Of a DNA stretch of 64,000 nt, positions 5,586 to 63,314 are shown piece by piece. Every line of letters begins with the position of its first letter. Position 1 is the first letter of the stretch. The stretch lies in the sequence record MF327008. The stretch is one strand, 5' to 3'. This stretch comes from Shigella phage Sf24. Under the pieces are notes generated by a model, which made no database searches, was not told the origin of the DNA, and saw only the letters and a list, made by a program, of their open reading frames with translations. Position numbers and translations under genes: made by a program.

Positions 5586-5795
5586 TTAAATTACATGATT
5601 ATTTATAATAAATTCTCGCGGAACGTTAAAATACCCAATTTTAGTTAATATAACAATATCGCCGTTAATAATTACCGGAGAATAATCTTCTGGAGCATTA
5701 AATTTCCAATGGGCTCTAATATTATATCCATCAGAACCAAATGCTCGAGTAGCCGGTCTCCCGGCTTTTTGCCACGCGTAGAAATCAAATTTCAT
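5586..5795 (-). CDS. hypothetical small protein (69 aa)
   Basis: Track ORF between soc and 56. Confidence 0.5.
   Translation of the reverse strand: MKFDFYAWQKAGRPATRAFGSDGYNIRAHWKFNAPEDYSPVIINGDIVILTKIGYFNVPREFIINNHVI
5600..5607 (-). promoter_or_regulatory. late promoter TATAAATA for soc
   Basis: Exact TATAAATA about 30 nt upstream of soc ATG. Confidence 0.7.
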
Positions 5796-5992
5796 TTTGA
5801 ATGCTCTATAATTAATTTTAAGGCTTCTTCGCTGACAAAAATTTCATCAAGACCTTCTTCTATAACCCAATCAACCATACGAAGTTGATTAGTTAAGAGC
5901 TCACATACGAGCTCCTTGTTATAATCTTTAAATAGCTGGTCAATACGTTTCTTATGGGCTTTCTTAAGCTGACGCTTATTTAAACGAGCCAT
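5792..5992 (-). CDS. hypothetical small protein (66 aa)
   Basis: Track ORF between soc and 56. Confidence 0.5.
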   Translation of the reverse strand: MARLNKRQLKKAHKKRIDQLFKDYNKELVCELLTNQLRMVDWVIEEGLDEIFVSEEALKLIIEHSK

Positions 5993-6510
5993 TAATAACC
6001 TCGGTCTTGACGAGCGAAGTTTTCAGCATTTTTCAGGTAATAAAGTTTAAAGATTTCTTCAGCTGACATTCCAAGAGCAATAAATTTATTCATGAAAAAG
6101 TGAAATTGGTCAATCAGTTCAAATTTAATTTCAAGCTGATCTTCGGGAGATAAATCTTGAATTTTCTTGGATTGCATTTCAGAATAACGTTTCTTCCAAG
6201 GTTTCCATACAGCAGAAGCTTCTTTTTCACCATTACTCATACCACCAAGAGAAGTATATAGTTCGCGAGTTTCATCTGCGATATAATCGTCTTGGTTTCG
6301 CAACCAAGCAAGAACTTCTCCTGCGGTTTCAAGTGAATCAGGATGACGATTTGTTTCTGGTTTATCATTAGCCAAACGAATCTGTAAATGCCGCTGCATG
6401 TCAAGCATAACCTGCAATGGGTCAATACTGTGCATAATATACTCAGCATATGCACGATTTGCTTTATCAACACCTTCGATCAAATGAGCACATTCATTAA
6501 AGTGAGCCAT
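5992..6510 (-). CDS. 56: dCTP pyrophosphatase (gene 56)
   Basis: MAHFNECAHLIEG...; start moved to ATG 6508-6510 (track begins at an upstream TTG) with AAAGGA SD; 171 aa. Confidence 0.88.
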   Translation of the reverse strand: MAHFNECAHLIEGVDKANRAYAEYIMHSIDPLQVMLDMQRHLQIRLANDKPETNRHPDSLETAGEVLAWLRNQDDYIADETRELYTSLGGMSNGEKEASAVWKPWKKRYSEMQSKKIQDLSPEDQLEIKFELIDQFHFFMNKFIALGMSAEEIFKLYYLKNAENFARQDRGY

Positions 6511-6570: not shown

Positions 6571-7910
<1,340 letters not shown>

Positions 7911-12314: not shown

Positions 12315-12653
12315 TTAAAAGAATTTAAATTTTTTCTTTGACCTTTTATTAAATGCATCTTGCAGTTGCATTGTAATACATTTTTCTACATGAGGAGCTA
12401 ACTCAGCTTTTCTTTCTTGGTCAAGAACAGCAAAGTCCATTACAACCTTTCCATCAACCCAATCCAGTTTAGTTACATACACTATATGTGTAGAACCATC
12501 TTCTAGTTTAATGACAATCTCCTGGATAACATTTTCCATAGCGGATTTAATTATCTTAAGAGACTCATTAAAAAGACGTTCTTTTCTTTCTTTTTCCCCC
12601 TCCGAAGAGGGGGATTCATCGATAATTTCTAAATCTAAATCATCTTTACTCAT
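12315..12653 (-). CDS. 40: gene 40 protein (head vertex assembly chaperone)
   Basis: Synteny between uvsX and 41; track ORF starts at GTG 12671, first in-frame ATG is 12651-12653; start ambiguous. Confidence 0.55.
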   Translation of the reverse strand: MSKDDLDLEIIDESPSSEGEKERKERLFNESLKIIKSAMENVIQEIVIKLEDGSTHIVYVTKLDWVDGKVVMDFAVLDQERKAELAPHVEKCITMQLQDAFNKRSKKKFKFF

Positions 12654-13827
12654 TAAATTCTTCCATATCACTTAACTGCTCGAGGTCAGTTTCTAAATCA
12701 GCTGCTGATTTACTTTTACTTTCTGGAGATTTAAATTTTTCAACCTTTGAGTTAATCAATTCATCAACTTCAGCTTCAACAATTTCATTACTATCAATAG
12801 CACCTAACTGATAAGCACGTTTAATAGCATCTCGGAATGGCTGATGCTTAAATAAAGGACCCCAGAATGTAGTGCAGTTGGTATCTTTTGCACGCCAAGA
12901 TTTTTCTTCGCGAATCATCTCACCGGTTTCTTCGTCAAGAAATTCACGAGCATACCAGCCATTTTTAGGTTTTACCACAAATCCTAATTCAAGAGCCATA
13001 TCTAACAATCCAGAATAAGGATCGATGCCACCGTCAAATTTAACATCAATAAAGAATTTACTTTTTTCTTTAACGGTACGAGATTTTTCTACATTTAGAA
13101 CAAATTGATACCCCTGAAGATCAGAACCATCTTTAATCTGGCGCTTACCGATAATGAATACAGTATCAGCCGAATACATTACGCCTGTACCACCTGTCAT
13201 CACGGTTTTACTAAACATTTCAATTGTTTCAATTGTATGGTTAACCGCAACACATGGAATATTTTTAATGCTAAAGTAAGGAGTAACAATACGGAATAAT
13301 GACTTCAGTGATTTAGCACGAGTCATATCTGCCACAGATTTTTCATTCAAGGCATCTTCAGTTTCTTTCTTAGAAGCCATATTACCGATTGAGTCGATGA
13401 ATACAATAACTTTTTCACCGCGCTCAATAGCTTCAAGCTGATTCACCATATCAATTTTTAGCTGTTCAACTGACTGAATCGGCGTATGAATTACTCGTTC
13501 TGGGTCAACCCCCATGGATCGCAAATAAGCTGGAGTAATACCAAATTCGCTATCATAGAATAGACAAACCGCGTCAGGATATTTGTTCAAATATGCCGCA
13601 ACCATAGTCAAAGACATATTTGATTTAAAGTGTTTAGAAGGCCCTGCGAAAATAGTTAAACCAGACTGCATACCGCCATCAATCGCACCAGAAATAGCAA
13701 TATTAAGCATTGGAATTTTTGTACGAATTACATCCTTTTCATTAAAGAATTTAGATGTAGTCAGTTCAGCAGTCATTTTAGAAGTGGAAGCTTTAATCAA
13801 ACGGGATTTTAAATCTGCAATAGACAT
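12646..13827 (-). CDS. uvsX: recombinase UvsX (RecA-like)
   Basis: 393 aa; matches T4 UvsX as recalled. Confidence 0.95.
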   Translation of the reverse strand: MSIADLKSRLIKASTSKMTAELTTSKFFNEKDVIRTKIPMLNIAISGAIDGGMQSGLTIFAGPSKHFKSNMSLTMVAAYLNKYPDAVCLFYDSEFGITPAYLRSMGVDPERVIHTPIQSVEQLKIDMVNQLEAIERGEKVIVFIDSIGNMASKKETEDALNEKSVADMTRAKSLKSLFRIVTPYFSIKNIPCVAVNHTIETIEMFSKTVMTGGTGVMYSADTVFIIGKRQIKDGSDLQGYQFVLNVEKSRTVKEKSKFFIDVKFDGGIDPYSGLLDMALELGFVVKPKNGWYAREFLDEETGEMIREEKSWRAKDTNCTTFWGPLFKHQPFRDAIKRAYQLGAIDSNEIVEAEVDELINSKVEKFKSPESKSKSAADLETDLEQLSDMEEFNE

Positions 13828-13904
13828 TCATTTTTTCCATAGGCATCATTATATTTTCCTCACTGGTTAAAGATAGAGTAATTATAACACAATAAATTTA
13901 GGCA

Positions 13905-14747
13905 TTAATCAACTGCTATTGGATGAATAACATTAAACTTATGAAATGCTTCTGATTTTTCTTTACGTGAAACGCACATGCGAAGAACCTTTAATGGTTC
14001 GTCTTCTTCACCCAACGATTTTCGTTTTTCAATATTAGAAGTTTTCCAACGAGCTTGCTCTGGAAACTCTCTATTGATTTGCTCAAGCGCTCTATTATGT
14101 TTAGAATTACTACGAATTGAACTGCACCCGCCAGGAGCTTGTGCTTTTCCAGATACAACCAGATATTTGAACAAGGCCAAATGCGGATAACCTTGATTAA
14201 TTAAATTGAGAAATGCATACATATCTTCGCACAAATCAATTTTTCCATACCCAATTTGTTCTGTCGTAAGTTTTCCAAGGTCATACCATGTATTCGTGAA
14301 TCCATATGAATTTTCACGATAATTACCCCAAGATGAAGTAATTTTAAAAATTGGTAGGCGAGCATGACCATGATAATACCCGCAATCCATGGCATCCTCA
14401 ACGTATTGAATCAATTCATAGAACTGTTCACGGGTTAATTGATTAATTTTATCTACGCAGCGACGATCATCTTTCTTTCGCATTGAGCTCATACGAATAG
14501 TAGTATCATCGTCAATCATCCAGATTCGTTGACCTGCATACATATCAGTAATTGCTTTACGAGTACCGGCAATTCCGTTTACATCATCAGGAATAGTTAT
14601 AATTTTAGCTCTAGACCCATAGGCATCATAATAAGCTTTTTCTTCATGTTCACGCACTACAATATGGGGTTCATAATCAGTCGGAAACATATCAAGGGCA
14701 GAAACTGCCCCGACACGCTGATAACTTGGAATTACGAATTGAATCAT
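13905..14747 (-). CDS. putative glycosyltransferase at the beta-gt locus (not T4 beta-gt)
   Basis: 280 aa from ATG 14745-14747 (ATGA overlap with gene 42 stop, AAGGTGAG SD); RIWMIDDDTTI DxD-like motif; does not match T4 beta-gt as recalled. Confidence 0.6.
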   Translation of the reverse strand: MIQFVIPSYQRVGAVSALDMFPTDYEPHIVVREHEEKAYYDAYGSRAKIITIPDDVNGIAGTRKAITDMYAGQRIWMIDDDTTIRMSSMRKKDDRRCVDKINQLTREQFYELIQYVEDAMDCGYYHGHARLPIFKITSSWGNYRENSYGFTNTWYDLGKLTTEQIGYGKIDLCEDMYAFLNLINQGYPHLALFKYLVVSGKAQAPGGCSSIRSNSKHNRALEQINREFPEQARWKTSNIEKRKSLGEEDEPLKVLRMCVSRKEKSEAFHKFNVIHPIAVD

Positions 14748-15484
14748 TTCCACTCACCTTTATAGTCTTTTTTCACAATATGAGTTTCGCCAGTATTCCA
14801 CCAATGATCAACCAAGTAAAAATGACGAGAATATACATGAAGACTTCCGACATTCCATATAATAGAACCTGCTTTATACTGACGAGTTGAATCGCCTGCA
14901 TTCAAATCAGATACTAATTTATCTAATACGTATTTTTGCCATGCATAATCATTACGGAATCCGAAGACCACGTCATTTGAGCGCATGCTTACTACTGCAT
15001 TGACTTTCTTATCACGAATCAGGTACTGTACTGTATTAGTACACATGAAATCTGACATACCATCTTTATTGTAGTCAAATTGCATGGATGGACGAGTATA
15101 AATCATGATACCACGTCGAGAATCAGGATTTTGACCAAGTTCAGCTAAACACATATCATACTGGGCATAGTTATCTTCTGACCAAATAGCCCAACCATAA
15201 TTCGAGTTAATTTCGCCTTTAGAAGATGCTACTTGTTGCCAAATCTTCGGTGTTTCACCTGGAATATCTTTAACAAACAAACTCTTAGATTTATACCATT
15301 CAAGTTCGCGCTGAATGTATTCATCATTAAGAGCGCCAAAAATAAACGGTTCATCTGCTACAAATGATGCGCCAATAATTTCAATAGTTTTAACACCGGT
15401 TTTATCAACTACGAAATCTTTTTCCTTTAATGCAAGCCCCAAATGAAGACGGATTTCTCCAACTGTCATATAATCGTTAATCAT
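14744..15484 (-). CDS. 42: dCMP hydroxymethylase (gene 42)
   Basis: 246 aa; thymidylate-synthase-like; matches T4 gp42 as recalled. Confidence 0.93.
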   Translation of the reverse strand: MINDYMTVGEIRLHLGLALKEKDFVVDKTGVKTIEIIGASFVADEPFIFGALNDEYIQRELEWYKSKSLFVKDIPGETPKIWQQVASSKGEINSNYGWAIWSEDNYAQYDMCLAELGQNPDSRRGIMIYTRPSMQFDYNKDGMSDFMCTNTVQYLIRDKKVNAVVSMRSNDVVFGFRNDYAWQKYVLDKLVSDLNAGDSTRQYKAGSIIWNVGSLHVYSRHFYLVDHWWNTGETHIVKKDYKGEWK

Positions 15485-15491
15485 TTAAACC

Positions 15492-15641
15492 TCAATTGAT
15501 GCATTCATATTTAATTTGTAACAGTAATAAACTCCAACCTATAATAAGTGGCGGAATCATAAGAGGAACTGTTACGCTATAGTATATACTTATTATAATC
15601 ATCAAGATTAAAAGCAACACTGCTATAATTTTGCTTTTCAT
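15492..15641 (-). CDS. hypothetical 49-aa membrane peptide translationally coupled to imm
   Basis: Hand-translated MKSKIIAVLLLILMIIISIYYSVTVPLMIPPLIIGWSLLLLQIKYECIN; ATG overlaps imm TGA (ATGA); GAGAAGGA SD. Confidence 0.4.
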   Translation of the reverse strand: MKSKIIAVLLLILMIIISIYYSVTVPLMIPPLIIGWSLLLLQIKYECIN

Positions 15642-15889
15642 TCCTTCTCTCTGATGATAATTACCTGATTTGGTTGTGCAGACTTTTTAGTTTCACCCGC
15701 AATTGACCAAATAAATGTAATAAACCAACCAATAATTGACCAGTTAAACAGTAAAGATGTGAAAAAGATTCCTACTGTCGATTTTGACCCACGCATCAAG
15801 GCGATAAACCATGGAAGCATGTATATAATAATAGCCAACACACCTGAAACTAAAACCATAAAAATTGAACCTGCTACTAAAGTTTCCAT
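15638..15889 (-). CDS. imm: superinfection immunity protein Imm
   Basis: 83-aa two-TM membrane protein; synteny between 42 and 43. Confidence 0.85.
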   Translation of the reverse strand: METLVAGSIFMVLVSGVLAIIIYMLPWFIALMRGSKSTVGIFFTSLLFNWSIIGWFITFIWSIAGETKKSAQPNQVIIIREKE

Positions 15890-16287: not shown

Positions 16288-16524
16288 TCAAATGCAAGTA
16301 GTAATTACTCCAGTAGTGCTTATGCAGGTATTACCCATTTGCACACCTAAAGATCCATTTGTATTCACATGAAGATTATCATCAATTTTAACTGATATTT
16401 TACCATTAGTGTGAATAACGGTGCTAGATTCAATCACAGGTTGAGTATCATTTTCAACACTAACAAATGGAACTGCTGCTAATGCAACTAAACAAACTGC
16501 TAAGCATCCCATAACAATTTTCAT
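16288..16524 (-). CDS. hypothetical secreted small protein (78 aa)
   Basis: Track ORF 16288-16536; start moved to ATG 16522-16524 with GGAGAATAAA SD; signal peptide; early promoter upstream. Confidence 0.55.
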   Translation of the reverse strand: MKIVMGCLAVCLVALAAVPFVSVENDTQPVIESSTVIHTNGKISVKIDDNLHVNTNGSLGVQMGNTCISTTGVITTCI

Positions 16525-16558
16525 TTTATTCTCCAAATCCGTATTAGTTGATAGTTGT

Positions 16559-16588
16559 ATAGTACCATGGAAGAACAGGGATGTAAAC
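16559..16588 (-). promoter_or_regulatory. early promoter with conserved leader
   Basis: GTTTACA-N18-TACTAT followed by ACAACTATCAACT...GGAGAATAAA-ATG. Confidence 0.7.
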
Positions 16589-16667
16589 AGTTTTGTGAAA
16601 AATTTTTAATGAATTTACAGGACCTAGAATCATCTGTTTTTCATAAGTATAGATTTATATTACTTGT

Positions 16668-23059: not shown

Positions 23060-24742
23060 TTAAACCATTACAGTAAATCGACCAACTTTCTTCATTTGAA
23101 GATGCTGACCATATTCTTGCGGGTCATGGTCTTTATGCGAAATTATAAAAACATTAGTGTTTTTCATTGAATTTATAATATTAGCTACACCTTTAATACC
23201 TTCGGCATCAAATGACCCATCAAACACTTCATCGAGTATTAACGTACTAATACTAACACCAGATACAATAGAAGCAATATCACGCCAAGTAAATAAAAGA
23301 GCAATATCAATTCGTGCTTTTTCACCTTCACTAAATGAAGCATAACTAAAATCTTCACGACCACGGGATTTAATTGTCTCATTAAATTCTTCATCTAATG
23401 TAAACACATAATCCGCTTCCATTATTTTAAGATAATGGTTAATCTGCTTATTAAATAATGGAACGTACTTTTTAATAATAGCACCTTTAATACCAGAATC
23501 TTTGAGCATATCAGTCAAAATTCCTCGGTGGTATTTTTCCATTACTAAATTAGTTTTTGTCTTAACAATTTTATCAAGTTCTTCTTGAAGCAGTGCTATT
23601 TCATCAGCATGGTCAATAAACTCAGAAGATGCTTTTTCTATAGCTGCTTTAACTTTTTTAGCTTTATCTACCGTCGTGATTAGAGATTGCTTTTTATTGC
23701 GAATATCATTTGCCAACGACTGCTGAGTTTTAATATTATCTCGGTATTCATCAACAAGAACTTTTAAATTATCACGGTGTGTTGAAAGCTGTTCAAACGA
23801 ATGCGTACATTCAGAAACTTTATCTTTAATTTTAGAAACAACTTTATCACCGGAACTTAATTGTGACAAACAGGTTGGACATAATCCACCTTCGTGATAC
23901 ATATTAATGACTTTATTATACGAGTCAATTTTTGATTTAATTAAAACTGCTTCTTGACCGATTTTATTAAATGCATCAGTCGGGTCTTCATCCAAAACAA
24001 TATTAACTAATCTTTCGTTAGCTTCTTCTATTTCCGATTTTAGCGTTCTAGCTTCTTTTGCCAAATCATCATACATATTTTGTAGACGTGTAAGGTTGTC
24101 ACCCGTTAATTTTTTCTGGCGTTCAACGTTATCATTATATATTTTAATTTGTTGGATAATACTATCTTTTTTAACATCAAGCACTTGGTTCTGCGAATTT
24201 AATTCACGTATTAGTGCTTTATTAAGCTTATCCATTTCAGCTAATGTTCCTACCTCAAGCAGGTCTTCCACAAGCTTTCTTCGCGCAGGGGTCGACAAAC
24301 CCATGAAAGGGGTATACCCTGCTGTACCAAGGACAACAATCTGCTTGAAACTGGCATATGACATTCCGATAAGCTGTTCAAATTCTGCTTGGAAATCTTT
24401 ACTGCTGGCAGATTCATTAAGACGTGTACCGTTAACGGTGATTTCGAAAACGTTTGGTTTTTGTCCTCTTTTGATATAGTACTTTTTCTCATCATATTCC
24501 ATCCACAGTTCAACTAAAAGTTCTTTCTTATTTGTGCTGTTTATTAATTGACCTTTCTTTACATCACGAAATGGCTTGCCAAAAAGCCCAAATGTGATGG
24601 CTTCTAACATAGTAGACTTACCACCGCCATTTCGGCCAGTAATAAGAGTTTTTTGAACCTTATCTAATTGAATGTCAATAGGATTTCCACCTACTGACAT
24701 TATATTTTGATACCTAACTCGGTTTAGTTTAAAATTCTTCAC
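23060..24742 (-). CDS. 46: recombination endonuclease subunit (gene 46, Rad50/SbcC-like)
   Basis: 560 aa; Walker A GRNGGGKST; coiled-coil middle. Confidence 0.93.
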   Translation of the reverse strand: MKNFKLNRVRYQNIMSVGGNPIDIQLDKVQKTLITGRNGGGKSTMLEAITFGLFGKPFRDVKKGQLINSTNKKELLVELWMEYDEKKYYIKRGQKPNVFEITVNGTRLNESASSKDFQAEFEQLIGMSYASFKQIVVLGTAGYTPFMGLSTPARRKLVEDLLEVGTLAEMDKLNKALIRELNSQNQVLDVKKDSIIQQIKIYNDNVERQKKLTGDNLTRLQNMYDDLAKEARTLKSEIEEANERLVNIVLDEDPTDAFNKIGQEAVLIKSKIDSYNKVINMYHEGGLCPTCLSQLSSGDKVVSKIKDKVSECTHSFEQLSTHRDNLKVLVDEYRDNIKTQQSLANDIRNKKQSLITTVDKAKKVKAAIEKASSEFIDHADEIALLQEELDKIVKTKTNLVMEKYHRGILTDMLKDSGIKGAIIKKYVPLFNKQINHYLKIMEADYVFTLDEEFNETIKSRGREDFSYASFSEGEKARIDIALLFTWRDIASIVSGVSISTLILDEVFDGSFDAEGIKGVANIINSMKNTNVFIISHKDHDPQEYGQHLQMKKVGRFTVMV

Positions 24743-26365: not shown

Positions 26366-26383
26366 AAAGGGCCGAAGCCCTTT
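26366..26383 (-). terminator. C(UUCG)G hairpin at the 3' end of alpha-gt
   Basis: RNA AAAGGGC-UUCG-GCCCUUU overlapping the a-gt stop. Confidence 0.45.
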
Positions 26384-27584
26384 ATTTTGTAATAATGTCA
26401 AACTGTTCTTTAAAGCAGAAGCTTGAATCTTGATGCTGATACAAAAATTCATAAGCTTTTTCGCGTTCACGGTCATAAAGAGTTCGGTCAGATGACAGTT
26501 CTTTAATACGCTCAAATGTTGATTCCATGTCATTTTCATCAAACCAAACGATACCGCTATCATGAGAAATTAACGGAGTATTATCAACACGGAATTTTAA
26601 ATTTTCGCCAGTAGATTTCCAAAATACCGGAATTGTTCCACATGCACCAAGCTCGAGATGAGTATATTCTAAAGAACGTTGTAGATATTTTTTGTCCAAC
26701 TTACTCAGCTGATAACCAAATCCGGATTTACTCATGCGTTCAAGCATTTCGCTATTTACATAACGGTCAAGAATTTGCGTTGGCAAATTAGGAGCAATTT
26801 TAATTTGGTCTACTTGATGAAGACGATAATACTCGTATGGAATTCCTTTTTCTTTAATAGGAATGAACGCTGGAGAACGTTCCAGACCTTCCATAATAGT
26901 ACTTAGTCCTGCAGGTTTAAGATGTTTTTCATGAAAATCAAACATCTGATAAAAACCTTTCCATGTAGTCGTACGACCAATCCAACGGTTGATATTCATG
27001 TTAATTTCAGAAACATCTTTCCAGTAGGTTGACCGAACCTTCGCAATATCCATAGGAGGCTGAAAGTTATATACTGTCGGTGCTTCTTCAATATCATCAA
27101 ACAGAGAAACTGTTTCAGGATACCATTCTTTCATCAGAACTTTATTAAAATCACCATTATCAGAATGGCTAAAAATAACATCAGCTCGACGAACAGTTTC
27201 TTCTAATCCCAAATTTCGGCGCAAAGAAAGAGAAGAATGGTCATGTTGATAAACTACAACACGAACAGAAGGTTTAATGTTATCAATAATTTTTTTATAG
27301 TTATTAATAGTGTCTTCTTCAACCGAAGTAGCAGGAACTGAATTGATAATTAGAATATCACAATCATTTACCAGCTTAAGTGTTTTATCATATTCTTTTG
27401 CCAATAAAACCGGAATTGAAAATGATTTATAATCATGCGCGCAATTACGAGTAAATGATTTATCTTTAGCATAAACCAAAGTTACTTCATGACCATTCTT
27501 AATAAACCAATCACGTTGCTCAAGAGAAAATTTAGTTACACCACAACCTTCAAGACCTCGAGCCATAAAAATACATACTTTCAT
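26382..27584 (-). CDS. a-gt: DNA alpha-glucosyltransferase
   Basis: 400 aa; matches T4 alpha-gt as recalled. Confidence 0.92.
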   Translation of the reverse strand: MKVCIFMARGLEGCGVTKFSLEQRDWFIKNGHEVTLVYAKDKSFTRNCAHDYKSFSIPVLLAKEYDKTLKLVNDCDILIINSVPATSVEEDTINNYKKIIDNIKPSVRVVVYQHDHSSLSLRRNLGLEETVRRADVIFSHSDNGDFNKVLMKEWYPETVSLFDDIEEAPTVYNFQPPMDIAKVRSTYWKDVSEINMNINRWIGRTTTWKGFYQMFDFHEKHLKPAGLSTIMEGLERSPAFIPIKEKGIPYEYYRLHQVDQIKIAPNLPTQILDRYVNSEMLERMSKSGFGYQLSKLDKKYLQRSLEYTHLELGACGTIPVFWKSTGENLKFRVDNTPLISHDSGIVWFDENDMESTFERIKELSSDRTLYDREREKAYEFLYQHQDSSFCFKEQFDIITK

Positions 27585-27634
27585 TTAATATCCTCTTTGT
27601 TTTGGTTTATTTTACCAAAAATTTATAAAGCAAT

Positions 27635-31624: not shown

Positions 31625-32095
31625 TTAATCATGTTTCCACACCCCATCGGTATTTGACCAAAGTCGCTGATTATCTGATCCTCGCCACAGCTTTTTGGTC
31701 GGAAGATTTTTCTCATACTTCCCATCAATAATAACATCAACATATTTAAGCATTTCTAGTTGTTTAATATCTTCAAATTTATATCCTGTCCACAACCAAA
31801 TGCTTTTATTGGGATAAAGATTTTTTACTGTTTGAACAATGCAATGAACAACATCTCGGTTATCAGGATAGAGAGGGTCTCCTCCAGTTATAGTTAATCC
31901 TTCTATATAATCATTATTCAAACATTCAATTAATTGCTCTAGTGTTTCACCAGTGAATGGAACACCGTTTCTAGCGTTCCATGTTGATTTATTATAACAC
32001 CCTTCGCATTTATGCAAACAACCTGTAACGAAAAGAACGACCCTGCAACCAGGGCCATTCACAAAATCACAAGGATAAAATCTATCATAATTCAT
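31625..32095 (-). CDS. nrdG: anaerobic ribonucleotide reductase activase NrdG
   Basis: 156 aa; radical-SAM cysteine cluster CLHKCEGC. Confidence 0.9.
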   Translation of the reverse strand: MNYDRFYPCDFVNGPGCRVVLFVTGCLHKCEGCYNKSTWNARNGVPFTGETLEQLIECLNNDYIEGLTITGGDPLYPDNRDVVHCIVQTVKNLYPNKSIWLWTGYKFEDIKQLEMLKYVDVIIDGKYEKNLPTKKLWRGSDNQRLWSNTDGVWKHD

Positions 32096-33909
32096 TGATG
32101 CTTAACCCTATGCATGATTTCTTTATTTTTACCGAGATTAAATCCGCGCTCGTTAGGATTTCCCAAATAACCGCATGTTCTTCTTATAGTATTCATCTTT
32201 TTGGGATCAGTTTCTCCACAAATAGAACAAACAAATCCGTTTTCAGTAGGAGTCATTTCATGAGTGCTTCCACACGTAAAACATTTATCTACTGGCATGT
32301 TAACACCAAAATAATCTAAATGTTGTGCAGCATAATCCCATACAGCCTCAAGACCTTTTAGGTTATTTTTCATATCAGGAAGTTCAACATAAGAAATGTG
32401 ACCACCTGTCGCAATGAAATGATATGGTGCTTCACGAGAAATCTTTTCAAACGGAGTGATATTTTCTTCTACTGAAACATGGAAACTATTAGTGTACCAA
32501 CCTTTATCAGTAACATCTTTTACGCTTCCATATTTTTCAGTATCAAGTTTACAGAAGCGATAGCAAAGGTTTTCAGCAGGAGTAGAATACAAGCTAAAAG
32601 CAAAACCGGTTCTTTCGGTCCACTGCTTAAGACGAGCATTCATTTTAGTTAAAATTTCCTGTCCAATATCACGACCGACAAGAATATTCAATTCGTGAAT
32701 ACCAATGTATCCTAAGGACACTGAACTTCTACCGTTTTTAAATAACTCAATTATATCGTCATCAGGTTTAAGACGAACCCCGAATGCACCTTCTTGGTAA
32801 AGAATAGGAGCAACAGTAGCTTTAACTCCTTTTAAGGAACTAATTCTACACATCAATGCTTCAAAACATAAATCCATTCTCTCATTGAACAATTCGGCAA
32901 ATTTCTGTTCATTGAACTGTGTTCCAATATAAGAATCTAGCGCAATGCGAGGAAGATTCAGTGTTACAACACCAAGATTATTACGTCCATCAAGAATTTC
33001 ATTACCAGTCGAATCTTTCCATACGCTCAAGAAACTACGGCATCCCATCGGAGAAACAGGAACAGATGAACCAGTGATAGCTTTATTGTTCTTAGCTGAA
33101 ATAATATCAGGATACATCCTTTTGCTTGCACACTCTAGAGCAAGCTTCTTAATATCATAGTTCGGATCATCTTTATAAAGATTAACACCTTCTTCGACGA
33201 ACATAACAAGCTTAGGGAAAATAGGAGTTATCCCATCACGACCAAGACCTTTAATACGATTTTTCAGAATTGCTTTCTGAATCATTCGTTCAGTCCAGTC
33301 AGTTCCCGTACCAAATGTAATTGTTACAAAAGGCGTTTGTCCGTTTGAACTAAAGAGAGTATTTACTTCATATTCATAAGCTTGGAATGCATCGTATACG
33401 TCTTTTTCTGTTTTAGATTGAGCATAATTTAACGCATCAGCGATTTGCCATTTTTCTGCATCCTCAATATGTTTTGCATAGGTGCGTTTAACATAAGGAG
33501 AAAGTACTTTATCTACATTCGCAAAAGTCGTTCCGCCATATTGATGGGAAGCAACTTGCGCAGTAATTTGTGCCATAATTGCAGTAGCAACACCGATTGA
33601 TTTAGGAGTTTCAATCTGCGCATTACCAAGCTTAAATCCGTTCTCAAGCATTCCTTTTAAATCTACTAAACAACAATTAGTAAATGGAAGAGCAGGGGAA
33701 TAATCAATATCATGGAAATGAATAATTCCGCTTTCATGCGCTTTCATAATAAAAGACGGGACCATATTTTTGGCAATGTGTTTAGACACAATACCAGCCA
33801 TAAGGTCCCGTTGAGTTGGAAAAACACGAGAATCTTTATTAGCATTCTCGTTTAAAAGGTCTTTATTAGTTTTATGAATCAATCCTTCAATTTCTTTTTC
33901 AATTGTCAT
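32092..33909 (-). CDS. nrdD: anaerobic ribonucleotide reductase NrdD, uninterrupted
   Basis: 605 aa continuous ORF; C-terminal glycyl-radical motif RTCGYLG. Confidence 0.95.
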   Translation of the reverse strand: MTIEKEIEGLIHKTNKDLLNENANKDSRVFPTQRDLMAGIVSKHIAKNMVPSFIMKAHESGIIHFHDIDYSPALPFTNCCLVDLKGMLENGFKLGNAQIETPKSIGVATAIMAQITAQVASHQYGGTTFANVDKVLSPYVKRTYAKHIEDAEKWQIADALNYAQSKTEKDVYDAFQAYEYEVNTLFSSNGQTPFVTITFGTGTDWTERMIQKAILKNRIKGLGRDGITPIFPKLVMFVEEGVNLYKDDPNYDIKKLALECASKRMYPDIISAKNNKAITGSSVPVSPMGCRSFLSVWKDSTGNEILDGRNNLGVVTLNLPRIALDSYIGTQFNEQKFAELFNERMDLCFEALMCRISSLKGVKATVAPILYQEGAFGVRLKPDDDIIELFKNGRSSVSLGYIGIHELNILVGRDIGQEILTKMNARLKQWTERTGFAFSLYSTPAENLCYRFCKLDTEKYGSVKDVTDKGWYTNSFHVSVEENITPFEKISREAPYHFIATGGHISYVELPDMKNNLKGLEAVWDYAAQHLDYFGVNMPVDKCFTCGSTHEMTPTENGFVCSICGETDPKKMNTIRRTCGYLGNPNERGFNLGKNKEIMHRVKHQ

Positions 33910-42067: not shown

Positions 42068-43036
42068 TTATTTCAGAAGAGTAACCTCAGCGATTTCTTC
42101 CCAACCGTTTTTGTCGGTCATAATAAAGTCAGCAAGATAAAGAGCAGTACGCAGTGAAACATTGCGTAAACGATTAACATTGACTTTCATCCATGATAAT
42201 GCTTTATAAGTTTCTTCATCAGAAAGACCGCGCTTTTGCATCATGTCAGTTGAAAGAATAACATCTTCAACCCTGACCATAATTTCTTCATTAGTGTGAA
42301 CACCCAAATCCAAATAAACTGAGCGGGACACTAATGCTTGTAAGTGTGGGGCAAGTTTAGTACCACGGTCTAATTCGCGGTCAATGTCAACGTTTGTGAT
42401 AAAAACAATCGTTCCTTTAAATTCAAACTCACGCTCAATGCCTTTTTCTTCTAAGTAAGAAGATGCAGTGCTCCAGCAGACTTTACGGGTCTCTCCAGTG
42501 TCCAGAGCAGCTTTTAGAAGATTAAGAATGTCCATATCAGAGAAAACATCCACATCATCAATCAAAAGGACAGAATTCTCTTCACGATTATTCCAAAGCT
42601 GTTCATAAAGACCAATACCAGAGATTTTACCATTAATGCTTTTATACTCAATGTATCCAATATCATTTGCTTTATTTAAAGCTTTATCTAAAGAATACGT
42701 TTTACCAATACCTGCTGCTCCCGAGATAATTAATGAACGAATGTTTCCGTTAATAATACCATTCGTCATCATTCCCATAACATTAAATCTTTTATTAATG
42801 CGGGTTTTCATATCTTCATACGATTCTTTAACTTCTTCAACTTTTACACCATCATATGAAATGTCTGATTTGTAAACCCAAACACCGCGACGTTTACCGT
42901 CAATTTCAACAAAAACTTTACCATCTCCTTGTGCATCTACCGGAGCATTATCCGGGAACCATTCGCCTAAGAGCTCAAAAGTTCCAGAGATTTCTTTACC
43001 GAAGTAGATACCCTTATTGATAGTTACAGTTTTCAT
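42068..43036 (-). CDS. P-loop ATPase (322 aa)
   Basis: Walker A GAAGIGKT, Walker B LLIDDVD; start at ATG 43034-36 with GGAGAATAAA SD. Confidence 0.65.
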   Translation of the reverse strand: MKTVTINKGIYFGKEISGTFELLGEWFPDNAPVDAQGDGKVFVEIDGKRRGVWVYKSDISYDGVKVEEVKESYEDMKTRINKRFNVMGMMTNGIINGNIRSLIISGAAGIGKTYSLDKALNKANDIGYIEYKSINGKISGIGLYEQLWNNREENSVLLIDDVDVFSDMDILNLLKAALDTGETRKVCWSTASSYLEEKGIEREFEFKGTIVFITNVDIDRELDRGTKLAPHLQALVSRSVYLDLGVHTNEEIMVRVEDVILSTDMMQKRGLSDEETYKALSWMKVNVNRLRNVSLRTALYLADFIMTDKNGWEEIAEVTLLK

Positions 43037-43070
43037 TTTATTCTCCAAATCCGTATCAGTTGATAGTTGT

Positions 43071-43100
43071 ATAGTACCACAAAGCTTTATGCTTGTAAAC
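43071..43100 (-). promoter_or_regulatory. early promoter with conserved leader (near-duplicate of 16524-16590)
   Basis: GTTTACA-N18-TACTAT then ACAACTATCAACTGATACGGATTTGGAGAATAAA-ATG. Confidence 0.7.
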
Positions 43101-43123
43101 AGTTTTGTGAAAAATTTTTGAAA

Positions 43124-43152: not shown

Positions 43153-44166
43153 TCATTTATAATAACTTCGGTGGTTTTCAAGATAGACCTTCTCAAGGAA
43201 GTCATCCCAAAAACTCATGTCTACTTTTTGCTGCATACCGTTCTTAGAAGCTTCAGTAGATGCTGCTTCTACTTGATCGACCACATCTTCCAAAAACTCT
43301 TGAACCGTTTTAAATGGATGCTTACCCAACTTCACGTCGAGAATAAAGGGAGCATCTTTGAGTGGATAAATCAAGTCGCCAGTTTTGTAAATTTCCAATA
43401 GTTGAAGTCCACCACGACAAGCATGACTCAGAGCTTTCCAATCAATACCTTCATTAGCTTCGGCTTTACGAGCACGTTCACCATATTCAGCATCTAATTT
43501 GTTCAGTGACTGCTTAAGCTCAATAAGAGAAAGCGTTGTCTGATATTTACGACCCAATACAGTGTAGAACGTTTGTGGGCCTGTTTTCTTATGATTATGG
43601 AACACCCATTCACAGAATTCGTTTTCTGGAAGACGATGCTTAATATCTTCAACTTTAGTGCGACGCTGCTTAATAGAACCATCTTCTTGGTAATCAACCC
43701 ATTGCTCAGGGATTTGATTAACTACTTTCAATACATCGCGTAATGCAGCCAAACGAGAACCCTTGACACCATATTTAGAAGCTTGCTTGCGAACATATCC
43801 TAAATAGGATTTCATGTTAGTCGTATAAAAACGAGAACGGTTGTCTTGAATAAACTTCCACACATCAGGCAAATCAGATTTAACCACTAGTTCAGGTGGA
43901 GTGTGAAGCATATCCAATGCTACAGTTTCACCATCTGCTGCTAATTTAAAGAAATATTTAAGACTGTATAGTTCATGGTCAATATCATCTTTAGTGTTTT
44001 TAGATGATGTGTTATTAGTGTTTTTACTCATGTGCTCTTTGACATTTCCGATAAGAATATCACGAGCAGGAGGAACAAAAATTTCTTTAAAATCTACATC
44101 AGATTCTGGGGTAGAAGTTCCATAAAGATGACTACCAAAATAGCTTTTCATTACTGTTTTCATCAT
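43153..44166 (-). CDS. nucleotidyltransferase-fold protein (337 aa)
   Basis: FGSHLYGTSTPESDVDF fits the G[GS]x9-13DxD NTase motif; followed by hairpin terminator. Confidence 0.6.
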   Translation of the reverse strand: MMKTVMKSYFGSHLYGTSTPESDVDFKEIFVPPARDILIGNVKEHMSKNTNNTSSKNTKDDIDHELYSLKYFFKLAADGETVALDMLHTPPELVVKSDLPDVWKFIQDNRSRFYTTNMKSYLGYVRKQASKYGVKGSRLAALRDVLKVVNQIPEQWVDYQEDGSIKQRRTKVEDIKHRLPENEFCEWVFHNHKKTGPQTFYTVLGRKYQTTLSLIELKQSLNKLDAEYGERARKAEANEGIDWKALSHACRGGLQLLEIYKTGDLIYPLKDAPFILDVKLGKHPFKTVQEFLEDVVDQVEAASTEASKNGMQQKVDMSFWDDFLEKVYLENHRSYYK

Positions 44167-44624
44167 TCAGCCTTATATTCAATAACAGGACATACTTTAG
44201 CTTTACGAGCTTTTAAAAATTCAACGATAATCGATTTCTTGGGTTGAATAGGAGGTAAACCTTTATACGCCCTATCAATATTTTCTATGTGTAAAGCATA
44301 ATCCTTTTTCCATTTATAATCTTTATATTTTTCATGCAAATGTGCAGGAATAACAAATGAACCGATAATAAGTAAAACAACCAAAAGCGCAAGTATAAAT
44401 GCTGATGGAATAAGAGTCCATAAACTACCAAAAATAAGCCATTTCTGCATGATTTCTGCGCAGATAATAGTTAGACCTGCGAGTATAGTACATCCGAAAA
44501 AAGAAACGAAAAATGTAGGAATAACAACAGACCAAAAATATGCACACAGTGTCTTAGGTCGTTTCCATTCATCATTAAACATTTTGAATAATTTATAGTG
44601 CCAAGAGTTTTCATTAATAATCAT
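44163..44624 (-). CDS. hypothetical membrane protein (153 aa)
   Basis: Track ORF, multiple TM segments; stop overlaps the NTase ATG. Confidence 0.55.
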   Translation of the reverse strand: MIINENSWHYKLFKMFNDEWKRPKTLCAYFWSVVIPTFFVSFFGCTILAGLTIICAEIMQKWLIFGSLWTLIPSAFILALLVVLLIIGSFVIPAHLHEKYKDYKWKKDYALHIENIDRAYKGLPPIQPKKSIIVEFLKARKAKVCPVIEYKAE

Positions 44625-44626
44625 AA

Positions 44627-45148
44627 TTATCCTTTCATTGAAGGTGTAACAGTTGTTAAATACTTAATCATAGCTTCAGCTTCTGATTTTGATAATGAAA
44701 TTTCTCCATTGTTTTGACGAATAGAAATAAAATCCGGATGACGGTCACCACCAGCTTTTAAAATACACATATAAGTATCAGTTTCATCTTCAATATCTGA
44801 AATGATTGAAGCAGTTCCGCATGAATGTGGTTTTTGATAAATCAATGCAGCTTTTCTTCCGCCATTTGACTGTTCATAAACTTTTAATACATCAAACAAA
44901 TCACTTCTTTTATCAATAGCTAAAATGTTATTTTCATCTTCAATGTTAAATCCTTCGGATACTTCATAAAGTGTCACCCATAAATCGCCAATATCAATAA
45001 CAGCGTTCACTTTTCCATGACTTTCAAGAGCATGACAAATTTTCTTGATTTCGTCATAACTCATTTTAATAATATCATCTCCTTGACTAAGGAAGATGTC
45101 ATTTTTAAATTCAACACGAATTAAACCGCTTCCACTTGAAATAAACAT
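44627..45148 (-). CDS. hypothetical protein (173 aa), paralog-like with next ORF
   Basis: Track ORF; FNIEDEN and C-terminal YLTTVTPSM resemble the neighbour. Confidence 0.55.
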   Translation of the reverse strand: MFISSGSGLIRVEFKNDIFLSQGDDIIKMSYDEIKKICHALESHGKVNAVIDIGDLWVTLYEVSEGFNIEDENNILAIDKRSDLFDVLKVYEQSNGGRKAALIYQKPHSCGTASIISDIEDETDTYMCILKAGGDRHPDFISIRQNNGEISLSKSEAEAMIKYLTTVTPSMKG

Positions 45149-58025: not shown

Positions 58026-58289
58026 TTATTTCATATTATTGAAATATTCTTCTGCGATTTCATCGTTATCATGGTAAACTTTAGAAGACAGTTTAACATA
58101 ACCTTCAGCAGTGAACATGTTAATCACAACCTTTACAGTATACCACTGACCATCTTCATTACCCATTACTGCGTAAGTTTCAAACATCGGATGATCAGGA
58201 CCGATAACTTTAATATCATTCACTGTACGACCAAAATCTTCTGAAACACATTTCATAAAGAAGTTGAACAGTTCGCCGTAATTATCCAT
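58026..58289 (-). CDS. hypothetical protein (87 aa)
   Basis: Track ORF begins at TTG 58301; first ATG 58287-89 with GGAGAATGAA SD; early promoter upstream. Confidence 0.55.
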   Translation of the reverse strand: MDNYGELFNFFMKCVSEDFGRTVNDIKVIGPDHPMFETYAVMGNEDGQWYTVKVVINMFTAEGYVKLSSKVYHDNDEIAEEYFNNMK

Positions 58290-58332
58290 TTCATTCTCCA
58301 AGTTGTTTTCTGTATCAGTAGTTGATAGTTGT

Positions 58333-58362
58333 ATAGTACCATGGAAGGGTAAGGATGTAAAC
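58333..58362 (-). promoter_or_regulatory. early promoter with conserved leader
   Basis: GTTTACA-N18-TACTAT then ACAACTATCAACT. Confidence 0.7.
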
Positions 58363-58480
58363 TGTTTTGTGAAAAAAATTTTTAAAAAGTTTTGGGGAAT
58401 TCTAGGGCAGGGAGGGGCAATTAAAAGATAGGATAATATATTATAAAGGGTAGAAACTAAATGATGTCTAGAGAGGCCCG

Positions 58481-58835: not shown

Positions 58836-59186
58836 TTAATATTCTTTTAAAGCATCAATTTGTTCACGGCGTTTACGCCATAAATCAATTGCTTCATAAG
58901 CAGATTCAGCATTTCGAATTAGCCGACATTTATGTAAAGACTTATGATTTTGATATTGTGTAGATAACGGAATTTTATCTAAAAGGTCTTTACGTTCAAA
59001 ATATTCGTAACCATCTAAACCAAATGAACGATTTTTGAGAAATTGCCAATGACCAAATTCGTTTTCGACATAAACATAATCTGCATGCTGATAAAGCAAA
59101 TTAATTACACGTTCAGAAATAACAGTATCATTATGATTAAAATAGAATGTTAAATCATGAACTACTAAGTAAACATTGCCTTTCAT
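58836..59186 (-). CDS. hypothetical protein (116 aa) immediately downstream of tRNA-Arg
   Basis: Track ORF 58836-59234 trimmed to ATG 59184-86 (GAGGAAAAT SD) because the longer form overlaps tRNA-Arg. Confidence 0.5.
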   Translation of the reverse strand: MKGNVYLVVHDLTFYFNHNDTVISERVINLLYQHADYVYVENEFGHWQFLKNRSFGLDGYEYFERKDLLDKIPLSTQYQNHKSLHKCRLIRNAESAYEAIDLWRKRREQIDALKEY

Positions 59187-59204
59187 ATTTTCCTCACTTA
59201 TAAT

Positions 59205-59281
<77 letters not shown>

Positions 59282-59285
59282 TATT

Positions 59286-59360
59286 TGGCGGACATGCATG
59301 GATTCGAACCATGGACCAATTGATTAACAGTCAACTGCTCTACCATTGAGCTACACATCC
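59286..59360 (-). tRNA. tRNA-Asn (anticodon GUU)
   Basis: Hand-folded: anticodon loop CTGTTAA, T-arm CATGG-TTCGAAT-CCATG, CCA encoded. Confidence 0.75.
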
Positions 59361-59364
59361 AAAT

Positions 59365-59451
59365 TGGTGGGGAGTGATGGAGTCGAACCACCCGAGTCGC
59401 AATGACAATGAATTTACAGTCCACACCGCTACCTCTACGGGATAACTCCCC
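59365..59451 (-). tRNA. tRNA-Tyr (anticodon GUA), long variable arm
   Basis: Hand-folded 87 nt: acceptor GGGGAGT/ACTCCCC, anticodon loop CTGTAAA, T-loop TTCGACT, CCA encoded. Confidence 0.75.
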
Positions 59452-59463
59452 TAATTCATAATT

Positions 59464-59538
59464 TGGTGGCCCTGGGTGGAATTGAACCACCATCTGGCGA
59501 TTATGAGTCGCTTGCTTGAACCTTCCAGCTACAGGGCC
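59464..59538 (-). tRNA. tRNA with CAU anticodon (Ile2-type or Met)
   Basis: Hand-folded: acceptor GGCCCTG/CAGGGCC, anticodon loop CTCATAA, T-loop TTCAATT, CCA encoded. Confidence 0.75.
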
Positions 59539-62600: not shown

Positions 62601-62601
<1 letters not shown>

Positions 62602-63314
62602 TATAGTACCTTTAGTGTATTTTTAATTTTAGAAAAAAGTTCTTCAAGAGAACCATCGTTTGTAATTACTAAATCGCCATCACGAATTGGCAATCCAGCT
62701 TCTGTAATATGTGTATCATTGGATTTTTGACCAGGACGAACTACATGAATTACTGTAGCACCCATCGCCCTAGCCGCATCCATTTCATGATCTTGACGAG
62801 TATCAGGAACGATATAATAATCATAACCTGAGTTAAATTTATCAAGATAATCTAAAGCAAATAATTTTACCCAGTACATGCGGTCGAAGTTATTAACAAT
62901 CAAATCCGTACCTAGGGCTTGCATCAGACGACGGACTGACCATTGATCTTCAATATTATTTATAACGTCAGCAATCTTGTTAAATGCTACGAAATTAACT
63001 GCGTCATCAAAAACAAACACACCTTTAATTGGGCTTTTACTATTAAGATAGCAAAATGCTTGTTCCATAATCGTAATTACTTCTAATTTAGTCAGATTTA
63101 AATTAGTTTCACGATCATAGTCAATTCCTTCAAACTCTTTACGAGTTAAACAAGGATAGTCAGTGTTTGCTGCAAATACACCCCATGCATAAGCCAATGC
63201 ATCCTTAATAGGACCAGCAAGTTGATATTTAACTGCAGAATAATTATTCATAATAAAATCTGCAGTAGTATCTTTTCCACTACGCTTTACACCACTTAAA
63301 AAGATTAGTTTCAT
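62601..63314 (-). CDS. 1: deoxynucleoside monophosphate kinase (gene 1)
   Basis: 237 aa; P-loop GVKRSGKDT. Confidence 0.9.

Follow-up and report, generated by a model that had tools for sequence, protein, structure and literature searches.

In phages T2 and T6, gentiobiosyl-hydroxymethylcytosine (gentiobiosyl-hmC, a β-1,6-glucosyl-α-glucosyl derivative of hmC) is the product of a β-glucosyl-HMC-α-glucosyltransferase encoded by ba-gt (also called ggt or TAGT), and it amounts to 5% in T2 and 72% in T6 (PMC6024577). The enzymes were described by Winkler and Ruger (1993, NAR 21:1500, as cited in PMC11946311) and have the UniProt entries Q06717 and Q06718 (PMC6024577). In a T6 Δba-gt mutant the DNA carries α-glucosyl-hmC only, and its sensitivity to the Brig1 glycosylase is increased (PMC11078745), and T6 Δg-gt DNA is a substrate on which BapA acts (bioRxiv 10.64898/2026.02.25.707755). 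HPLC/MS of Tequatroviruses encoding both α-GT and TAGT revealed hmdC, α-glucosyl-hmdC and α-gentiobiosyl-hmdC but no β-glucosyl-hmdC; virion DNA of one phage, QOTSP, contained about one-third 5-hmdC and about two-thirds α-gentiobiosyl-hmdC (PMC13390438). Most RB phages possess a-gt and ba-gt (PMC6024577), and the a-gt and b-gt pair of the T4 type was counted in 6 of 753 glycosyltransferase-encoding phage genomes (PMC13216743). The authors of PMC13390438 remarked that the position of TAGT is syntenic with that of T4 β-GT.

The DNA analysed here, hereafter the window, is a stretch of 64,000 nucleotides from Shigella phage Sf24 (record MF327008). It is a Tequatrovirus (T4-like coliphage) segment, collinear with T4 from about 10.2 to 76.1 kb, and its closest relative over 24 kb is Shigella phage Sf25 (99.2% identity). 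A preliminary description of this DNA had placed a 280-aa ORF between uvsX and gene 42, and its limits, 13905-14747, proved exact: on the minus strand the ORF runs for 280 codons from an ATG (14747-14745) to a TAA (13907-13905). In the ORF listing the frame begins two codons earlier, at a GTG, and has 282 aa; T2, T6 (AP018814), QOTSP and Lutter are annotated with the ATG as start. A pseudogene was ruled out, the ORF being intact and all family-invariant residues present. The gene order uvsX, ba-gt, 42, imm is identical in T2 and T6. T4 aligns with the window on both flanks, its homology stopping short of the last 18 nt of gene 42 and restarting inside the start of uvsX, so that 13816-14761 has no T4 counterpart; since the homology breaks so tightly around ba-gt, the locus represents a clean cassette difference. 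The features discussed are collected in Table 1.

Table 1. Features of the ba-gt locus, of the hmC pathway and of the head protein slots in the window.
Feature	Position	Strand	Basis or remark
gene 56, dCTPase/dUTPase, keeps dCTP out, so hmdC alone is incorporated	5992-6507	minus	phrog_173, E 1.1e-43; aligned to T4 gene 56
uvsX	12646-13827	minus	PF21134 and PF00154
promoter-like TTGATTAATGCCTAAATTTATTGTGTTATAAT	13881-13912	minus	overlaps last codons and stop of ba-gt, reads into uvsX
ba-gt (ggt, TAGT), β-glucosyl-HMC-α-glucosyltransferase	13905-14747	minus	280 aa; ORF, homology, profiles
D79-D80-D81 codons, DxD-type motif	14505-14513	minus	just after fourth β-strand (residues 74-79)
ATGA overlap, gene 42 stop/ba-gt start	14744-14747	minus	direct sequence reading
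gene 42, dCMP hydroxymethylase, hmC precursor	14744-15484	minus	PF00303; 94-95% nt identity to T4 gene 42
a-gt, DNA α-glucosyltransferase, supplies ba-gt acceptor	26382-27584	minus	PF11440, 782.6 bits; collinear with T4 a-gt
internal head protein, 157 aa	53192-53665	minus	phrog_3155/DUF7412; MKTY(K/Q)EF capsid-targeting leader
internal head protein, 85 aa	61573-61830	minus	phrog_3499; MKTY(K/Q)EF capsid-targeting leader
gene 1, dNMP kinase, phosphorylates hmdCMP	62601-63314	minus	phrog_139, E 1.1e-65; aligned to T4 gene 1

The plus strand reads TCAT at the junction with gene 42, that is, ATGA on the coding strand, with the TGA of gene 42 at 14746-14744. The identical 4-nt overlap is annotated in T2, T6 AP018814, QOTSP and Lutter. 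Translational coupling between the two genes had been asserted before: the overlap stands, and the coupling itself is probable, judging from that overlap. The gene 42 transcript would express ba-gt. A scan of 13700-15700 for promoters and terminators gave no excess over shuffled sequence (11 versus 9.9 and 2 versus 0.9, respectively) and no signal between gene 42 and ba-gt. A terminator-like hairpin at 14711-14695 lies inside coding sequence and was not regarded as functional. At the other end of ba-gt, the promoter-like sequence TTGATTAATGCCTAAATTTATTGTGTTATAAT contains a TGT-TATAAT extended -10 element, and the annotation of phage Lutter has a 'promoter' at the homologous position; the σ70 scan missed it because its spacing is 20 nt. 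From its sequence, TTGATTAATGCCTAAATTTATTGTGTTATAAT might be a middle promoter of the MotA type.

A comparison with the T2 and T6 β-α-glucosyltransferases, which the preliminary description had recommended, gave 98% amino acid identity to the proteins of T2 (AP018813) and T6 (AP018814, MH550421) over all 280 residues; identity to the QOTSP protein is 99%. The T2/T6 gene at the matching place is annotated ggt, β-glucosyl-HMC-α-glucosyltransferase, and the window protein matches phrog_842, 'beta-glucosyl-HMC-alpha-glucosyltransferase', with an E value of 1.6e-88. The T2 and T6 genes resemble that of the window in length, in their slot between gene 42 and uvsX, in the ATGA overlap and in the a-gt partner; the proteins differ from it by a few conservative substitutions that give no functional difference to name. 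The ORF is therefore almost certainly a ba-gt of the T2/T6 type, an enzyme making gentiobiosyl-hmC. More distant homologues from T4-like phages of Klebsiella, Enterobacter, Citrobacter and Serratia share the family and, mostly, the position next to the gene 42 homologue, but are only 47-66% identical to the window protein.

The window allele has neither R11H and P251S of T2 nor Y40N, D55G and R106H of T6, and carries three substitutions of its own, K92, I101 and V273, which do not occur jointly in any of the five sequences compared. These three, together with the arabinosyl and di-arabinosyl modifications known from related T4-like phages (PMC6024577, PMC13390438), are what could be cited for an allele that uses another sugar donor or linkage and makes a disaccharide other than gentiobiose. 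Such a change of product is exceedingly improbable: the substitutions are conservative and fall in non-invariant alignment columns, a gentiobiosyl product has been measured for enzymes that share 98-99% of their residues with this protein, and arabinosylation in the other phages depends on unrelated genes and starts from a different base precursor.

The ORF was said earlier not to match T4 β-glucosyltransferase, and indeed BLASTP detected no similarity between the two proteins (best E 3.4). Nor did the window protein match PF09198, the family of T4 β-gt, at E ≤ 1. A β-gt located elsewhere in the 64-kb window was ruled out, tblastn with the T4 protein finding none (best E 8.8). T4 β-gt and ba-gt have in common the slot downstream of gene 42, the donor UDP-glucose and a β linkage on phage hmC DNA. 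They differ in fold, GT-B for T4 β-gt and GT-A for ba-gt (PMC13216743 and the model described below), and in acceptor, which is hmC for the former and α-glucosyl-hmC for the latter.

Occupancy of the β-gt slot could also mean that ba-gt glucosylates hmC directly, replacing T4 β-gt at sites that α-gt misses rather than extending α-glucose. TAGT homologues do occur in phages that have only β-GT or otherwise lack glycosyltransferases, so that acceptor specificity may vary across the wider family (PMC13216743). For the T2/T6-type enzyme, direct transfer is nevertheless very improbable. T2 and T6 keep about 25% of their hmC unglucosylated; Tequatroviruses with this gene pair show no β-glucosyl-hmdC by HPLC/MS (PMC13390438); and T6 Δba-gt reportedly has only α-glucosyl-hmC, presumably at about 75% of sites, which fits loss of the second sugar alone (PMC11078745). 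Addition of a second glucose to α-glucosyl-hmC remains the preferred reading.

The preliminary description had also pointed to a DxD-like motif of the GT-A type, RIWMIDDDTTI, and had suggested profile and structure searches against glycosyltransferase families. The motif occupies residues 74-84. In a family alignment of 9 sequences reaching down to 32% identity, D79, D80, D81, R11, the IPSY segment and about 35 further positions are invariant. The protein scores 38.8 bits against PF20691 (TAGT, TET-associated glycosyltransferase; gathering cut-off 27.5 bits), residues 3-207 covering positions 2-205 of the 205-position profile, and its homologues carry PF20691 too. The window protein is a distant member of this family, with which it has in common the whole profile above threshold, the invariant DDD and a GT-A-type fold. 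It differs in continuing for about 75 residues past the C-terminal end of the profile, and in being associated with the gp42 hydroxymethylase route to hmC instead of with a TET/JBP dioxygenase.

The structure model comprises a single Rossmann-like α/β/α nucleotide-sugar-binding domain with the DxD motif at the end of the fourth β-strand (residues 74-79), as in GT-A enzymes, and not the two domains of the GT-B fold. Its matches were solely GT-A-type and related nucleotide-sugar transferase structures; a Foldseek search of the PDB gave no match at E ≤ 0.001. The model is moderate in quality, residues 131-149 and 202-210 falling below pLDDT 50, and the alignment behind it is shallow because the homologue search yielded 11 clusters only. 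Searching the PDB by sequence revealed no relative of solved structure; the top-scoring entries, RNA-binding proteins at E 0.76, were noise. With moderate confidence, the modelled fold is GT-A-like, in agreement with a published AlphaFold3 analysis that places T6 TAGT in the GT-A superfamily as sister to inverting GT2, a relationship consistent with formation of a β linkage from UDP-α-glucose (PMC13216743). By analogy with GT-A enzymes, the DDD would participate in metal or UDP-sugar binding; metal dependence and an inverting mechanism may be expected from the β product off UDP-α-glucose and from the relationship to GT2.

The genes that ba-gt would depend on co-occur with it in the window: a-gt, stated earlier to be present elsewhere and indeed found (PF11440, 782 bits), gene 42, gene 56 and gene 1. 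A pathway can be proposed from these partners. The products gp42, gp56 and gp1 would replace cytosine by 5-hydroxymethylcytosine in phage DNA, and α-gt would transfer glucose from host UDP-glucose to hmC in α linkage. As a DxD-containing inverting transferase of GT-A fold, ba-gt would then add a second glucose to the first in β-1,6 linkage, giving gentiobiosyl-hmC. The DNA would be expected to contain free hmC, α-glucosyl-hmC and gentiobiosyl-hmC but no β-glucosyl-hmC, β-gt being absent within the 64-kb window. Gentiobiosyl-hmC would in turn shift which host defences act, for instance glycosylases specific for α-glucosyl-hmC. What is established here is the identity of the gene, its family, motif, fold class and partner genes. 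The chemistry and the defence phenotype come from the literature on near-identical proteins, products having been measured for phages whose proteins are 97-99% identical to that of the window (PMC13390438), and from these I infer both the activity in the Sf24 phage, β-1,6 transfer onto α-glucosyl-hmC, and its extent. The earlier suggestions that a second sugar is added to α-glucose, as in T2/T6, and that defence sensitivity changes with it both gain support by analogy, from the DNA and from the Brig1 sensitivity of T6 Δba-gt, respectively (PMC11078745).

How far the second glucosylation proceeds cannot be predicted from sequence, since T2 and T6 differ so widely (5% versus 72%) with enzymes that are about 98% identical to that of the window and differ from each other at few residues. 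One possibility is an orthologue that works as poorly as that of T2, leaving mostly α-glucosyl-hmC and free hmC with a few per cent of gentiobiosyl-hmC. T2 itself is the precedent, its gene and place being alike and its gentiobiosyl-hmC yet only about 5% (PMC6024577). Phages of the Durham study that share the gene pair fall into two differing ratios (PMC13390438), and the window has a dam and 'restriction enzyme-like' pair (see below) seen in that study only in the group lower in gentiobiosyl-hmC, where hmC, α-glucosyl-hmC and gentiobiosyl-hmC stand at 1:2:2 (PMC13390438). Poor activity is nonetheless unlikely for the window allele, which has R11 and P251 as do T6 and QOTSP, both high in gentiobiosyl-hmC, and lacks R11H and P251S of T2; R11 is family-invariant, the ORF is intact, the DDD is complete and the ATGA is conserved.

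T2 ba-gt has His at codon 11, a position that is always Arg in family members down to 32% identity, and it has P251S as well. Arg11 lies in the IPSYQR segment after the first β-strand. R11H corresponds to one nucleotide substitution, CGT to CAT, against the background of a common haplotype (codon 11 is at 14715-14717 in the window), and RB32, which has Arg, differs from the T2 haplotype by that one nucleotide. Of 521 phage records, 8 had exactly the T2 haplotype, and each of these was T2 itself or the re-isolate SV76; IMG/VR yielded so few matches (0 for R11, 5 for H11) that its counts were uninformative. The T2 allele could conceivably be a hypomorph, which would explain about 5% gentiobiosyl-hmC as against about 72% in T6, but the proposal is tentative and rather doubtful. 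If it were true, the window allele (R11, P251) would predict a high, T6-like gentiobiosylation.

The two T6 records contain lesions of their own. MH550421 has TAG for CAG at ba-gt codon 10, its annotation beginning at Met20, and AP018814 is missing one Asp of the DDD (codon 79), which leaves 279 aa. These could be sequencing errors or mutations of laboratory stocks, and they matter if those stocks serve as the 'gentiobiosyl' reference.

In T4 (NC_000866) a 25-nt segment at 24238-24262 is identical at 24 of 25 positions to the last seven codons and stop of ba-gt (window counterpart 13903-13927). It sits between β-gt and segA, ending 3 nt before the segA ATG. Its alignment score is 45, compared with 20.1 ± 2.6 (maximum 31) over 300 shuffles. 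This relic suggests that the slot originally contained ba-gt, which β-gt, together with segA, replaced in the T4 lineage. No mention of the relic was found in PMC13216743.

Further differences from T4 were observed in the window. A 186-aa ORF at 7350-7910 (minus), with no T4 counterpart, abuts dam (6571-7350, minus); it matches phrog_8706, of unknown function, and, below threshold, the DpnII restriction endonuclease family (15.7 bits versus a cut-off of 23). A 'restriction enzyme-like gene' was reported only in phages Geo, EL and BGP (PMC13390438), and the 186-aa ORF is probably that gene. In this lytic phage a GATC methylase and a DpnII-like protein are neighbours. Internal head proteins other than those of T4 occupy the slots of ipI and of ipII/ipIII (the 85-aa and the 157-aa protein, respectively; Table 1); T4 IPI inhibits GmrSD (PMC13216743), so these alternative proteins may bear on which glucose-dependent restriction systems are resisted. 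The T4 genes segF, segA, mobB, mobC, mobD and segB and the nrdD intron with I-TevII are missing, and none of T4's homing-endonuclease genes is therefore present in the window interval. The junctions with respect to T4 are at 5608-6028, 13816-14761, 27575-27600, 32075-32095, 33371-33374, 44168-45129 and 58837-59518, some being occupied by other small ORFs (e.g. 44163-44624, 44627-45148 and 58836-59186). An extra 78-aa ORF (16288-16524, minus) lies between imm.1 and gene 43; it has a signal-peptide-like N-terminus, matches phrog_4189 (unknown function), is found in T2 and is unannotated in T4 and T6. Finally, three intergenic regions (16514-16609, 43030-43123 and 58287-58386) contain copies of a repeat, about 90-100 nt long, that matches three T4 sites (about 27.0, 55.3 and 70.6 kb) with 76-87% identity.

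The preliminary description treated the gene as unusual, and on this point it has to be corrected. Deposited phage genomes carrying ba-gt at ≥90% nucleotide identity number 473, many annotated by that name, and protein-level matches extend to 688 phage records. In Tequatrovirus the slot is normally filled by ba-gt, and T4 is the exception (473 records; PMC13216743, PMC13390438); the surprise arose because T4 was taken as the norm. The observation is correct but ordinary, the gene having been known since 1993 and well studied.

Many deposited genomes label the gene 'hypothetical protein', 'glucosyl transferase' or, wrongly, 'putative beta-glucosyltransferase'; its proper name is β-glucosyl-HMC-α-glucosyltransferase. 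By analogy with its relatives, the DNA of the window phage is predicted to contain gentiobiosyl-hmC and no β-glucosyl-hmC. Neither the annotation nor the sugar prediction is new, because both follow from what has been published on T2, T6 and related phages. The predicted sugar pattern would affect sensitivity to Brig1, BapA and GmrSD/BrxU (PMC11078745, PMC13390438, bioRxiv 10.64898/2026.02.25.707755), and such defence sensitivity is relevant when phages are picked for therapy or as tools.
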